A stretch of DNA of 64,000 nt from Escherichia coli (GCF_003334335.1 NZ_QOWQ01000002.1); one strand, 5' to 3'. Shown: positions 6,218-23,588, counted from the first letter of the stretch. The notes: generated from the letters alone by a model not told the origin. Translations and numbers: made by a program.

Positions 6218-8195
6218 GATGGTTTATCCGTAAGATCAACGGTGCGCAGGAAGAAATCCAGCGTTTCGTCGATGGTTTCCTGCATATCAATTTTCGGCTC
6301 CCAGTCCAGGCAGCGGTGGGCATTGCGGATGCTCGGTTTACGATGCTCTACGTCCTGATATCCTTTGCCGTAGTAGCTGCTACTTTCGACAACGCGAAAG
6401 CCCGCAAACGGTGGGAAATGATGGCGCAGCGGATGTTTTTCGAAGCTCGCCAGCAGCATCTCGCCCAGTTCCTCAATGCTCGCTTCGTTCTCAGGATTGC
6501 CAATGTTGATAATTTCACCGTCGCAGCGATTTCCCGCATTTTCGATAATGCGGTATAACGCCTCGATACCATCGCGAATATCAGTAAAGCAGCGTTTTTG
6601 TTTTCCGCCATCAATCAGCTTAATCGGTGAACCTTCTACCAGATTGAGAATGAGTTGCGTAATAGCGCGGGAGCTGCCAATTCGCGCTGCATTAAGGTTA
6701 TCCAGTCGTGGTCCCATCCAGTTAAACGGGCGGAAGAGGGTGAACTGTAAACCCTCTTTTTCGCCATAGGCCCAGATCACCCGATCAAGTAATTGTTTTG
6801 ATACCGAATAAATCCAGCGTGGTTTATTCACCGGGCCGACGATTAAATTAGAATGGTCCTCATCGAAGTATTTATCGCTACACATCCCATAAACTTCTGA
6901 AGTTGACGGGAAGATGATTCGCTTACGGTACTTCACGCAGTAGCGGATAATGCGCAGATTCTCTTCAAAATCGAGTTCAAATACGCGCAGCGGGTTGCGG
7001 GTATATTCAATCGGCGTGGCTATCGCCACCAGCGGCAAGACGACATCACATTTTTTGACATGATACTCAATCCATTCGGAATGAATACTGATATCGCCTT
7101 CAACAAAGTGAAAATGCGGATGATTCAGAAAACGGCTTATCGCATCGCTGCCAATATCCAGACCGTAAACTTCATAATGATCTTCGCGCAGCAGGCGTTC
7201 TGTCAGATGGTTGCCAATAAAGCCATTCACCCCGAGGATGAGTACCCGGGTACGGCGTCGGGCGGTGCAGGCAGGCTGGCTATTCAAGCGTGAACCTTGC
7301 ACCAGGCCCAGCGTCTGCGCTAATTGCGAGCCCTGCATAGTAATGCCGTCGCCCGCCTGTCCGGTGACGATTTCCAGCGCGCCATCGCCACAGGCAATCA
7401 GCAGTGGCGCAACAGAAATCACGCTCCCCGGCTGTGCTTTGCTGGCATGAGGATGAACACGCGACGACCAGACGGTGAATTTCTGATTGCCAACATAGCT
7501 GAAGGCACCCGGCCACGGATCGGCAACGGCACGTACCATGTTGTGCAGTACGGATGCCGGTTTATGCCATTCAAGGAAACTGTCATCCGGCGTTCTGCGA
7601 CCAAAACAGGTGGCTTCGTTTTCGCGCTGGGCGATTTCCAGAATATTACCGTGTTTAATGGCGGGTAATGTCTGTTCCAGTAGCTGGCGCGCGGCATGGC
7701 ACAATTTATGATGCAGCGTAATAGCGATATCGTCTGGCGCAATGGCAATGCGCAGTTGCGCCACAATGGCCCCGGCATCGGCACGTTTCACCATTCGGTG
7801 CAATGTAACGCCAGTTTCCGTTTCACCGTTGACCAGCACCCAGTTCAGCGGCGCGCGACCACGATATTTTGGTAACAGCGAACCATGCAGATTAAATGCA
7901 CCTGCGGGAGCGAGCTGCAAAATTTCGTCGTAAATAAGATGGCGATAATAAAAAGAGAAAATCACATCTGGCGACAGTTGGGCAATGCGTTCCACCCACA
8001 GCGGATGATTAACGTTATCCGGCGCATAAACCGGAATGCCTCTTTCCGCCGCCAGACGAGCCACCGAACCATAAAAGGCTTTTTCACCGGGATTATCAGT
8101 ATGGGTAAAAATGGCGCTAATTTCGTAACCGGCAGCCAGCAGGGCTTCAATACCGAGGCATCCCATATCGTGGTAGGCAAAAACGACGGTTTTCA

Positions 8196-8196
<1 letters not shown>
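6214..8196 (-). CDS. arnA: Bifunctional UDP-Ara4N formyltransferase / UDP-glucuronate decarboxylase
   Basis: 660-aa ORF; N-terminal formyltransferase fold ([13 protein letters not shown]...) and C-terminal NAD-dependent decarboxylase domain. Confidence 0.95.
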
Positions 8197-9167
<971 letters not shown>

Positions 9168-16082: not shown

Positions 16083-17372
16083 ATGAGCACCGCTTTGCTT
16101 GACGCCGTGGTGAAGAAAAACCGTGTGCGTTTAATTCCGTTTATGTTGGCGCTGTATGTGCTGGCGTTTCTCGACCGTTCGAATATCGGTTTTGCCAAAC
16201 AGACCTACCAGATTGATACCGGGTTGAGTAATGAAGCTTATGCGCTGGGAGCAGGCATTTTCTTTGTGGTATATGCGTTTCTGGGTGTTCCGGCGAATCT
16301 TTTGATGCGCAAACTGGGGGCCAGAACCTGGATTGGTACGACAACACTGCTGTGGGGATTTCTTTCGGCAGCCATGGCATGGGCCGATACTGAAGCGAAA
16401 TTTCTGATAGTTCGCACTCTGCTTGGTGCTGCGGAGGCCGGATTTTTCCCTGGTATGATTTATCTCACCTCGCAATGGTTTCCGCAGCGTAATCGCGCCA
16501 GCATTATGGGGCTGTTCTATATGGGCGCACCGCTGGCGTTAACACTGGGATCACCGCTTTCCGGCGCGCTGTTGGAGATGCATGGATTTATGGGGCATCC
16601 CGGCTGGTTCTGGATGTTTGTGATTGAAGGATTGTTGGCAGTCGGTGCTGGGGTATTCACATTCTTTTGGCTTGATGACACACCGGAGCAGGCACGTTTT
16701 CTGAGTAAACAAGAAAAAACGTTGCTTATCAATCAACTGGCAAGTGAAGAACAACAGAAAGTGACTTCTCGGCTGAGCGATGCGCTGCGTAATGGCCGAG
16801 TCTGGCAACTAGCGATTATCTACCTGACCATTCAGGTGGCGGTTTACGGATTAATTTTCTTCCTGCCGACCCAGGTTGCGGCATTGCTGGGAACAAAAGT
16901 GGGCTTTACAGCGTCGGTGGTCACCGCCATTCCGTGGGTTGCGGCCTTGTTTGGGACCTGGCTTATTCCGCGCTATTCCGATAAAACCGGCGAACGGCGT
17001 AATGTCGCAGCGCTGACATTACTGGCGGCGGGCATTGGTATTGGTCTGTCCGGGCTGCTTTCTCCAGTAATGGCGATCGTAGCGCTGTGTGTTGCAGCTA
17101 TCGGGTTTATTGCCGTGCAGCCAGTGTTCTGGACGATGCCGACACAACTGCTTTCCGGTACGGCGCTGGCTGCGGGAATTGGTTTTGTAAACCTGTTTGG
17201 TGCAGTGGGCGGGTTTATTGCCCCGATCCTGCGCGTGAAAGCAGAAACGTTATTTGCCAGCGATGCGGCGGGATTACTGACGCTGGCAGCGGTGGCGGTC
17301 ATCGGTTCGCTGATTATTTTCACTCTGCGTGTAAATCGCACTGTTGCGCAGACCGACGTGGCACATCATTAA
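16083..17372 (+). CDS. rhmT: MFS transporter (L-rhamnonate)
   Basis: 12-TM MFS ORF; start set at [10 protein letters not shown] (ATG 16083, preceded by AAGGAG at 16071); the six-frame ORF starts at 16044. Confidence 0.88.
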
Positions 17373-17389
17373 ATAGGTTAAGGAACACG

Positions 17390-18193
17390 ATGAACGCATT
17401 ATTAAGCAATCCCTTTAAAGAACGTTTACGCAAGGGCGAAGTGCAAATTGGTCTGTGGTTAAGCTCAACGACTGCCTATATGGCAGAAATTGCCGCCACT
17501 TCTGGTTATGACTGGTTGCTGATTGACGGGGAGCACGCGCCAAACACCATTCAGGATCTTTATCATCAGCTACAGGCGGTAGCGCCCTATGCCAGCCAAC
17601 CCGTGATCCGTCCGGTGGAAGGCAGTAAACCGCTGATTAAACAAGTCCTGGATATTGGCGCGCAAACTCTACTGATCCCGATGGTCGATACTGCCGAACA
17701 GGCACGTCAGGTGGTGTCTGCCACGCGCTATCCTCCCTACGGTGAGCGTGGTGTCGGGGCCAGTGTGGCACGGGCTGCGCGCTGGGGACGCATTGAGAAT
17801 TACATGGCGCAAGTTAACGATTCGCTTTGTCTGTTGGTGCAGGTGGAAAGTAAAACGGCACTGGATAACCTGGACGAAATCCTCGACGTCGAAGGGATTG
17901 ATGGCGTGTTTATTGGACCTGCGGATCTTTCTGCGTCGTTGGGCTACCCGGATAACGCCGGGCACCCGGAAGTGCAGCGAATTATTGAAACCAGTATTCG
18001 GCGGATCCGTGCTGCGGGTAAAGCGGCTGGTTTTCTGGCTGTGGCTCCTGATATGGCGCAGCAATGCCTGGCGTGGGGAGCGAACTTTGTCGCTGTTGGC
18101 GTTGACACGATGCTCTACAGCGATGCCCTGGATCAACGACTGGCGATGTTTAAATCAGGCAAAAATGGGCCACGCATAAAAGGTAGTTATTGA
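17390..18193 (+). CDS. rhmA: 2-keto-3-deoxy-L-rhamnonate aldolase
   Basis: HpcH/HpaI aldolase-family protein starting [21 protein letters not shown] (267 aa); the 368-aa six-frame ORF is an upstream extension overlapping rhmT. Confidence 0.9.
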
Positions 18194-18233
18194 TATCAAA
18201 GGCCCATGGGGATCGGCTGTGGGCCTGTGTTAA

Positions 18234-18419
18234 TTAGTGGTTATTCGCTGCCAGATCGGCTTCGCTTAGCTGGGTGGCCGCGAGCACCTGGTCACGATCA
18301 AAGCCCTGTTCCAGCATGCGCAAAGCAATTTTAATGGCTTGTTCATGCAAACCTTCTAATTTACCTTCCTGCCAGCCAATTTGATGTCCTTCCTGCCGCA
18401 GCCGTTCAGCAATAGTCAT
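18234..18419 (-). CDS. ypaA: Small protein YpaA, a diverged duplicate of the RpnE C-terminal domain
   Basis: 61-aa [64 protein letters not shown], near-identical to the last 56 aa of the upstream 299-aa ORF; same ribosome-binding site (AAAAGGAGAGATTAATG). Confidence 0.8.
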   Translation of the reverse strand: MTIAERLRQEGHQIGWQEGKLEGLHEQAIKIALRMLEQGFDRDQVLAATQLSEADLAANNH

Positions 18420-18431
18420 TAATCTCTCCTT

Positions 18432-18602
18432 TTAATGACAGTTCGGAATATCAGCATCAGTGAGTTGGGTTGTCGCCAGCACAATCTCACGTTCAAAGCC
18501 CTGCTCCAGCATGCGCAAAGCAATTTTAATGGCTTGTTCATGCATACCTTCCTGCCAGCCAATTTGATGCCCTTCCTGCCGTAGCCGTTCAGCAATAGTC
18601 AT
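18432..18602 (-). CDS. Predicted internal in-frame small ORF within rpnE (RpnS-like C-terminal domain, 56 aa)
   Basis: Internal ATG at 18600-18602 preceded by GGAGAG (AAAAGGAGAGATTAATG), the same sequence as the ypaA start region. Confidence 0.45.
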
Positions 18603-19331
18603 TAATCTCTCCTTTTGTAGTGGTGAACGTTCGGCAATCTCCTCAATAAAACGGGTGAAACGGGAGGTATCGCCGCATTGCAGCAGATAATTAAACAGTG
18701 TTTGTAGCTGGCTGTCATTAGTGAAGCCTCTAACCAAAAGCGTGGTGATCCTGTCGACCATGCCGATTAAATCGCGGTCGCGAATATGCTTTTGAATCAG
18801 TTCCAGCAGAGCTATACGCCGATGTTGCATGATCTCATCGTCAGGTACGATGGTGATATCCACCAACGGAAAAGCTTCGGTGTACAACTGCCGGGCAAGT
18901 TGCGGATCGTCAAACTCATCCAGCCAGTTGAGTGAGTACGGGTAAGGCGAGGTTTCGCCATGATAAAACAGCAACGGCACCACCAGCGGGACTCTGTCAT
19001 AGCCTTTGTCCAGGTGACGCTGCATGGCGGCAGTGGCATAGCGCATTAGCCGAAAAGCCATATTCTTTTCTGCAGAGCTTTGATGTTCAATCACGCAGTA
19101 GATATAGCCGTCACCGTCGCTGGTTTCCACGGACCACAAAACATCCGAGTAGTAAGCGCGTAAACTTTTTTCAATAAAACTAGTGGGTTCCAGGCGTAAG
19201 GTTTGCAGGTTGCAAAGCTTGCGCAGTGGTTCTGGTAAATGTATTTCGAGAAAATCCCGTGCGGTTTCGGGTGTGAACATAAAGGTTTTAAATACCGCAT
19301 CATGCGGGGAGGAGGTTGTTGATTCGGTCAT
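18432..19331 (-). CDS. rpnE: Rpn-family recombination-promoting PD-(D/E)XK nuclease (YhgA-like, transposase_31 family)
   Basis: 299-aa ORF recognised as YfaD/RpnE. Confidence 0.88.
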
Positions 19332-19479
19332 GGTTGTCCGTCACCTGATATTTATGATGACGCGACATTACGGTTATCCCAGGCCTTTGACATCTGCCAG
19401 TTTCAGCCTTTGCGAGACGTTTTCAGAGGAATTTTCACTGCGTTGCAACGCATACATTGGGCACGGAATCGTGTACGCA

Positions 19480-19511
19480 AAAATGCCCGGTAACCACATG
19501 CTTACCGGGCA
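19480..19511 (-). terminator. Rho-independent terminator downstream of glpC
   Basis: Minus-strand hairpin GCCCGGTAA-(loop)-TTACCGGGC followed by a T-run, directly after the glpC stop. Confidence 0.7.
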
Positions 19512-19523
19512 TCAGAAAGGAGT

Positions 19524-23588
<4,065 letters not shown>

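Follow-up and report, generated by a model that had tools for sequence, protein, structure and literature searches.

The question raised by this locus is why a nuclease gene, rpnE, is followed on the Escherichia coli chromosome by a separate small gene, ypaA, that repeats the C-terminal end of rpnE itself, and whether this second copy is a spare antitoxin for its neighbour. It is considered here in a stretch of 64,000 nucleotides (nt) of E. coli DNA (GCF_003334335.1 NZ_QOWQ01000002.1), hereafter the window, for which a short description had been derived from the sequence alone (the original prediction). ypaA, also named rpnE_Ss, is a paralogue of the RpnS-type module at the C-terminus of RpnE that stands as a gene of its own. 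Its recognition as a duplicated rpnE module is correct and was already published in 2019 and 2023; the anatomy of the junction, the polarity of the tails, the prevalence of the arrangement and the near-universal mismatch in repeat number are added by this analysis and are increments on that knowledge. With regard to function, a probability of about 0.6 is given to the reading that YpaA is a module decoupled from RpnE, with a specificity of its own and open to recombination, and not a redundant spare.

For the 1.8-kb stretch around rpnE and ypaA, identity is 100% with several E. coli chromosomes and 99.9% with K-12 derivatives, and the window is that of a K-12-like E. coli. rpnE is located between glpC and yfaU, with ypaA on its 3' side on the minus strand. 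The open reading frames (ORFs), Shine-Dalgarno (SD) sites and flanking hairpin of the locus, with protein lengths in amino acids (aa), are as follows.

18432..19331, minus strand: rpnE (yfaD), full-length RpnE_L, 299 aa (ORF list)
18705..19310, minus strand: PD-(D/E)XK / Transposase_31 nuclease domain, N-terminal, RpnE residues 8-209 (Pfam)
18609..18614, minus strand: SD site AAGGAG of the internal start site (iTIS) for RpnE_S (sequence)
18432..18602, minus strand: rpnE_S, in-frame internal ORF from M244 to the stop, 56 aa, antitoxin-type module
18426..18431, minus strand: SD site AAGGAG of ypaA, directly after the rpnE TAA (sequence)
18234..18419, minus strand: ypaA (rpnE_Ss), free-standing RpnS-type protein, 61 aa (ORF list)
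18200..18226, no strand assigned: G+C-rich, terminator-like hairpin between the convergent genes yfaU and ypaA

The original prediction of a 299-aa rpnE and a 61-aa ypaA lying 12 nt apart (18420-18431) agrees with the ORF list. ypaA is in frame with rpnE, the TAA and four codons lying between them. The start of rpnE_S, AAGGAG followed after 6 nt by the ATG of M244, makes it an in-frame gene within a gene.

Much of the expression of these modules has been described. Initiation peaks were found by Ribo-RET within all five rpn genes, and the internal product of RpnE was seen to resemble the independent gene ypaA (Meydan et al. 2019, bioRxiv 10.1101/520783). Both Ribo-RET and Onc112 peaks have been published for the internal RpnE_S start, and SPA-tagged RpnE_S has been detected (Zhong et al. 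2023, PNAS, PMC10400941). ypaA is also translated, with a Ribo-RET peak and immunoblot detection of the SPA-tagged protein (Zhong et al. 2023, PMC10400941; Meydan et al. 2019). Zhong et al. (2023, PMC10400941) derived ypaA from rpnE by phylogeny and renamed it rpnE_Ss, a second copy of RpnE_S; ypaA clusters with RpnE_S and may be lost by deletion or fusion. In the same work RpnS proteins were established as antitoxins of toxic RpnL nucleases, the systems tested being RpnA, RpnB, RpnC and the plasmid-borne RpnP2; the structure of RpnA_S was solved, and four-residue repeats in the long helix were found to set specificity. The original prediction, in describing Rpn proteins as toxic nucleases with an internally started C-terminal antitoxin, matches this work, and its proposal of a diverged antitoxin gene fits the naming of ypaA as a second RpnE_S copy. 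The main texts of Zhong 2023 and Meydan 2019 do not give the exact junction, the tail polarity, the prevalence or the repeat-count mismatch, and that of Zhong 2023 contains no YpaA antitoxin assay; a literature search found no later paper on YpaA function.

Two direct repeats were identified by the repeat finder, 18362-18433 / 18545-18616 (72 nt, 97% identity, offset 183) and 18255-18356 / 18450-18551 (102 nt, 84% identity, offset 195). The blocks are co-linear, and their offsets differ by 12 because ypaA has an extra 12-nt unit, KLEG (18351-18362). Both the repeat finder and local alignment bear out the prediction that the last 56 codons of rpnE recur in ypaA together with their SD site and with this indel; AAAAGGAGAGATTAATG is common to both copies. 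As to the extent of the repeat, the 56 codons and the SD site stand, and local alignment carries the homology further upstream than had been proposed. The duplicated units and the joint between them are the following.

18450..18641, minus strand: copy 1 of the duplication, 192 nt = 64 codons, inside rpnE (local alignment, repeat finder)
18255..18452, minus strand: copy 2, consisting of a leader remnant, the SD site and most of ypaA (local alignment)
18432..18449, minus strand: new RpnE C-terminus derived from the junction, ATT CCG AAC TGT CAT TAA (IPNCH and stop)

The copies abut head to tail, with the GAT at 18450-18452 common to both, and the junction falls within the last codons of rpnE. 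The contact between the copies, and the GAT that they have in common, make this a strict head-to-tail tandem duplication, which gives substance to the footprint of recombination that had been offered as one explanation. The end codons of rpnE align with the leader ATT GCC GAA CGT TCA CCA CTA CAA that precedes the internal SD site, with a 1-nt loss and a net 5-nt loss, and the IPNCH tail and its stop codon are therefore duplicated leader out of frame. Read in frame the leader encodes EIAERSPLQ, of which IPNCH and the stop are a frameshifted remnant. ypaA came from a single in-frame head-to-tail duplication of about 192 nt, whose unit comprised the last few linker codons, the internal start codon with its SD site, and nearly all of the C-terminal domain. 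In the simplest history, this product would later have been divided into two genes by small indels and by the stop codon at the junction. A new tail is now found on RpnE_L and RpnE_S, and ypaA has kept the ancestral tail ...DRDQVLAATQLSEADLAANNH and the ancestral downstream hairpin.

The polarity of the tails corrects the original prediction, in which ypaA was treated as the duplicated copy of the rpnE module. All five single-copy E. coli alleles fetched (ATCC 11303, O157 86-24, 23CRST032, Nissle 1917 and H2) possess a ypaA-type tail, ...DRD(Q/L)VLAATQLSEADLAANNH, followed by the same hairpin, and the end of rpnE in E. albertii, E. whittamii, Escherichia sp. E1V33 and MOD1-EC7003 is also of the ypaA type. 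These single-copy alleles and outgroups end in ...EADLAANNH, not IPNCH. The ypaA-type tail that they share indicates that the 3' end of ypaA is ancestral and that the RpnE tail IPNCH is derived. The hairpin stands directly after the ancestral stop codon and is kept in all Escherichia species examined.

RpnE_S and YpaA are 82% identical as proteins in the window, compared with the 98% given for the RpnE internal product and YpaA in the preprint of Meydan et al. (2019). The differences are concentrated at the 3' end, as had been predicted: 14 of 48 nt differ between the copies in the tail against 4 of 105 nt in the 5' part (Fisher p=2e-5), and the tails of RpnE and YpaA are unlike at about half of their last 21 residues. 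Synonymous sites of the tail differ between the copies at 6.2 of 11.5 (pS about 0.54). The copy-1 tail differs at 13-16 of 48 nt from every Escherichia single-copy tail and at 14 of 48 from that of ypaA, and orthologous single-copy tails differ from the ypaA tail at only 4-9 of 48 nt. The 5' part of the module is slow-evolving across Escherichia. Gene conversion or an imported tail is not claimed, as the contrast becomes borderline (p=0.051) after allowing for faster evolution of the tail between species. A search for a donor of the copy-1 tail on plasmids and phages found nothing nearer than 54% amino-acid identity; the megabase-size E. coli "plasmid" records that match it closely look like chromosomes. 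The divergence of the copy-1 tail may reflect an older duplication followed by repeated deletion, a faster rate of change once the tail had been rebuilt, or import.

A junction-spanning query was found with at least 80% coverage in 3132 of 5426 complete E. coli genomes (about 58%). The other 2256 genomes with a match cover only the first 37-39 nt of the query (SD site and module start), as expected for a single copy. Each state is distributed amongst many unrelated strains, for example K-12, IAI39, E2348/69 and ST131 with two copies and ATCC 11303, O157:H7, Nissle 1917 and H2 with one. The original prediction had left room for an assembly artefact, and an error of assembly or annotation that made the duplication unreal can be set aside: it has in its favour only the general assembly risk of short tandem repeats, and against it the same junction in 3132 independent complete genomes and also in other Escherichia species, as well as the detection of both proteins by chromosomal tagging (Zhong et al. 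2023, PMC10400941).

The identical junction is also found in Escherichia sp. E4385 and in another genome, labelled E. fergusonii by one source. In E4385 (2422-2499) a 77-nt segment of tail plus junction is 100% identical to K-12, and glpC, the N-terminal part of rpnE and the ypaA tail are 88-94% identical. This pattern suggests that the 77-nt segment spread laterally between Escherichia species by short-patch homologous recombination. The view that the duplication arose within E. coli is weakened: four outgroup representatives are single-copy, yet E4385 and the E. fergusonii-labelled genome share the junction. Lateral spread and an older origin of the duplication are both compatible with this distribution. 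In these two genomes the rhamnonate genes yfaU/yfaV do not come after ypaA, part of the rhamnonate cluster being missing; ypaA is followed there by an IclR-type fragment, a MoCF_biosynth gene and a YfaZ-family gene.

Whether YpaA can serve as a spare antitoxin depends on its four-residue repeats if RpnE follows the known Rpn proteins. The repeat tracts of the window are located as follows.

18546..18581, minus strand: four-residue repeat tract of RpnE / RpnE_S, 3 units
18351..18398, minus strand: four-residue repeat tract of YpaA, 4 units, with the extra KLEG at 18351-18362

The YpaA repeats start at residue 8, in keeping with RpnS proteins, whose variable repeats begin 8-20 residues after the Met. 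The number of units ranges from 3 to 9 in ypaA alleles and from 3 to 11 in rpnE. Both modules were taken from 27 two-copy genomes, a small sample whose members are not phylogenetically independent, and were paired as follows.

RpnE 3, YpaA 4: 3 genomes, including the window (as in K-12)
RpnE 3, YpaA 7: 1 genome
RpnE 4, YpaA 7: 3 genomes
RpnE 6, YpaA 4: 1 genome
RpnE 7, YpaA 7: 1 genome (E2348/69)
RpnE 8, YpaA 3: 4 genomes
RpnE 8, YpaA 4: 3 genomes
RpnE 8, YpaA 5: 5 genomes
RpnE 9, YpaA 5: 1 genome
RpnE 11, YpaA 7: 2 genomes
RpnE 11, YpaA 9: 3 genomes

The two counts are unequal in 26 of the 27 genomes, E2348/69 (7,7) being the only exception. One of the 11 distinct configurations is matched, where 0.083 per configuration, or 0.9 in all, would be expected if the counts were independent. 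The window, with 3 units in RpnE and 4 in YpaA, does not show the equal repeat number of a cognate antitoxin. In RpnC, the addition of one repeat to RpnC_S left RpnC_L no longer blocked, and the same repeat added to RpnC_L restored the effect (Zhong et al. 2023, PMC10400941); this mismatch rule is repeated in a commentary on that paper. If RpnE behaves like RpnC, YpaA would usually be non-cognate for the neighbouring RpnE. Because the counts mismatch and a mismatch of one repeat abolishes the antitoxin action of RpnC, YpaA is probably no simple spare for RpnE.

A redundant spare, by which YpaA would neutralise the resident RpnE_L as RpnE_S does and so raise the amount of antitoxin or provide a source under separate regulation, has the weakest support of all parts of the original prediction and is judged unlikely. 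Its identity of 82% with RpnE_S, the common fold family and the published translation of ypaA would suit such a role; the commentary on Zhong et al. holds that a second copy decouples toxin and antitoxin and so gives regulatory flexibility, and K-12 RpnE was non-toxic when overexpressed in a ypaA+ background, which would fit an excess of antitoxin. These points are met by the unequal counts in the window and in almost all two-copy genomes of the sample, by the loss of RpnC neutralisation with one repeat too many, by the dissimilar tails, and by the number of matched configurations, which at one against 0.9 by chance gives no sign of selection for equality. If RpnE obeys the rule, the second copy must be something other than a simple back-up, and the retention of ypaA in more than half of E. 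coli genomes needs another cause, for example a switch of specificity through recombination, or titration as a means of regulation.

The reading preferred here, a decoupled module of different specificity, extends what is known of RpnA and RpnC: an RpnS would pair, by way of its long helix, with a protein whose own helix is equally long. Since the overlap with rpnE has been lost, the number of repeats in ypaA changes without regard to that in RpnE. By analogy with RpnC, any inhibition of the resident RpnE_L by YpaA is probably weak or non-cognate; YpaA may be an antitoxin, or a module for dimerisation, with another specificity, and ypaA may be a homologous cassette for exchange of the C-terminal module of rpnE or for collapse of the duplication. 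With regard to its expression, the internal promoter would lie outside the duplicated unit, since it takes in no more than about 40 nt of the sequence before the ATG; without an internal promoter in the unit, ypaA is most likely co-transcribed with rpnE_S, on the rpnE_S transcript. A promoter scan of 18100-19600 gave no sigma-70 consensus match on either strand.

YpaA matches RpnA_S (PDB 7TH0) by phmmer over residues 1-59 (E=3.4e-4), with a 12-residue gap exactly at the repeats. An AlphaFold2 model built from 24 sequences places helices at 3-38, 42-49 and 53-58 with moderate confidence (mean pLDDT 74.9), and its best Foldseek match in the PDB is 7TH0, with a probability of 1.00 and a target-normalised TM-score of 0.69, but with E=0.064. 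The modelled fold is thus like that of RpnA_S, a long repeat-carrying helix followed by two short helices. Homologues of YpaA carry the precomputed label PF27070 HTH_Rpn_C, and their lengths step by four residues (57, 61, 65, 69, 73, 77, 81 and 89 aa); a Pfam-A scan of YpaA itself, with a library that does not contain PF27070, returned no significant family.

Among known systems, rpnE_Ss/YpaA of K-12 (Zhong 2023, PMC10400941; Meydan 2019) is the same locus as that of the window. RpnA_L/RpnA_S, RpnB, RpnC and RpnP2 have, like RpnE, an N-terminal PD-(D/E)XK nuclease domain, a C-terminal three-helix module made from an in-frame internal start, and four-residue repeats in the long helix, which there set partner specificity. 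The antitoxins of these systems overlap the toxin gene and must co-evolve with it, whereas ypaA is separate and varies independently; K-12 RpnE, moreover, differs from these proteins in showing no toxicity in published assays. A free-standing RpnS gene derived from rpnC has the same architecture, directly downstream of its parent rpn gene (Zhong et al. 2023, PMC10400941), but is of separate origin and is not present in the window. Small stand-alone genes of DUF4351 (PF14261) or HTH_Rpn_C (PF27070) encode free-standing RpnS-type proteins like YpaA, although YpaA gave no significant Pfam-A family. In the analogy drawn by Zhong et al., the number of four-residue TAEL helix repeats alters specificity in HsdS of EcoR124I and EcoR124II; that protein is unrelated, and what the number of its repeats determines is specificity for the DNA spacer and not the pairing of toxin with antitoxin. 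As an example of textbook size, the locus shows how a gene-within-gene toxin-antitoxin pair can become physically decoupled, a point already made in the literature.

As for the nuclease itself, RpnE matches Pfam PF04754 Transposase_31 with E=7e-88 over residues 8-209 (model positions 1-202 of 203) and the NCBIfam equivalog NF007418 with 699.5 bits against a cut-off of 583; its score with the RpnA model, 422 bits, is under that model's cut-off. The residues D11, D63, E82, Q84 and R94 and the motif PDDE at 163-166 are all kept at the positions that they occupy in RpnA, as judged from the mutagenesis list of Kingston et al. (2017), which gives those essential in RpnA. Overexpressed K-12 RpnE caused no toxicity, SOS induction or recombination in three assays (Kingston et al. 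2017), although its catalytic residues are intact, and the toxicity that the original prediction assumed in proposing a rescue experiment is not borne out for this protein. The constructs used still expressed RpnE_S, and the host carried ypaA. Antiphage activity, also proposed, has been shown for plasmid RpnP2 only, not for RpnE (Zhong et al. 2023, PMC10400941), and PADLOC-DB v2.0.0 (2023), a library that may predate the discovery of Rpn systems, gave no match for RpnE or YpaA.

In several genomes rpnE is disrupted with the S module intact, the toxin having decayed and the antitoxin-type module being retained with its SD site and ATG. In E. albertii (1773-2686) a 1-nt deletion at codon 195 of rpnE leaves a 242-aa ORF whose TAA overlaps the ATG of the S module; rpnE of E. 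whittamii (about 7288-8230) has a stop at codon 184, and that of E. coli HZ13 is annotated as frameshifted (PGAP).

A further question is whether ypaA is maintained at all. The SD site, ATG and open frame are intact in both modules in all 27 two-copy genomes. The mean pairwise ratio of non-synonymous to synonymous differences (pN/pS), computed from few substitutions, is 0.28 in the non-repeat part of ypaA, 0.30 in the in-gene copy 1 and 0.07 in the nuclease domain, which suggests that ypaA is under protein-level constraint. Alternatively, ypaA could be a neutral relic, a functionless by-product translated only through its inherited strong SD site and ATG on the rpnE_S transcript and being lost by homologous deletion. 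This is also regarded as improbable. The origin by duplication, the lack of ypaA in about 42% of E. coli genomes and in the four outgroup species representatives, the existence of deletion and fusion products, the pseudogene label given by PGAP in most genomes, and a segregating-site test that is not significant (p=0.065; 6 synonymous and 8 non-synonymous sites) are all what a relic would show. A relic would not readily account for the intact ORF and SD site throughout the sample, for a pN/pS of about 0.28 that is near the in-gene value, or for the persistence of the arrangement in many lineages (K-12, IAI39, E2348/69, ST131) and, with an identical junction, in another Escherichia species. The case of E2348/69 was also considered as one in which ypaA has replaced the internal antitoxin, and was rejected, the internal SD site being intact.

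A role as recombination substrate is suggested by single-copy alleles of mixed type. 23CRST032 has an RpnE-type repeat array, ...KLEGWQEGKLEGLQKGKVEG (...LQKGKVEG), identical to that of KKo009 and joined to a ypaA-type tail. The single-copy rpnE of SCPM-O-B-8794 and the protein P0055 have hybrid tails, with copy-1-type substitutions followed by a ypaA-type end, which may have arisen by a rare crossover or may represent an old allele. Hybrid alleles are the products expected from crossover between the units, and they fit the "fusion" of Zhong et al.

Several points weigh against the reading of YpaA as a decoupled module and recombination substrate. The repeat-matching rule has been demonstrated for RpnC only, with a single added repeat, and the action of YpaA on RpnE_L is an inference from it. 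K-12 RpnE, not being toxic when overexpressed, may have no toxin activity to regulate. The 42% of complete genomes without ypaA mark it as dispensable, and the evidence for constraint is limited by the few substitutions behind the pN/pS values and by the non-significant segregating-site test. A cassette role would, moreover, be an evolutionary consequence visible in the alleles and not a demonstrated selected function.

A bolder form of this reading, that YpaA is kept precisely because it is non-cognate and that the duplication is a diversity-generating device for a defence pair, is speculative and is placed slightly lower than either the spare or the relic. As a stored cassette, ypaA would hold an alternative C-terminal or antitoxin sequence by which RpnE could switch repeat register and tail through homologous recombination. 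As a decoy, YpaA would heterodimerise with RpnE_S and tune the ease with which RpnE_L is released. As an immunity factor, it would protect beforehand against incoming rpnE alleles of another register.

The annotation of the locus in RefSeq differs from the above. The ypaA equivalent is mostly given by PGAP as a pseudogene ("hypothetical protein; incomplete; missing N-terminus") whose boundary is set right up to the rpnE stop; a few records give it a real coding sequence, for which the newest name is "Rpn/YhgA-type helix-turn-helix domain-containing protein", and rpnE is still named "ISNCY family transposase". The practical point is that a translated gene is labelled a pseudogene in most genomes. 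For the convergent gene yfaU, the mechanical ORF list gives 368 aa with a GTG start (17087-18193, plus strand) where RefSeq has 804 nt (267 aa); the long ORF is extended too far upstream and so runs into the end of the transporter gene before it. Elsewhere the window contains three matches to the Rfam family naRNA4 (RF02564) above the gathering score, at 28958-29028, 59208-59284 and 59322-59398, all on the plus strand, and the gene of the antisense small RNA MicF (RF00033, 114 bits) at 63059-63152 on the minus strand.

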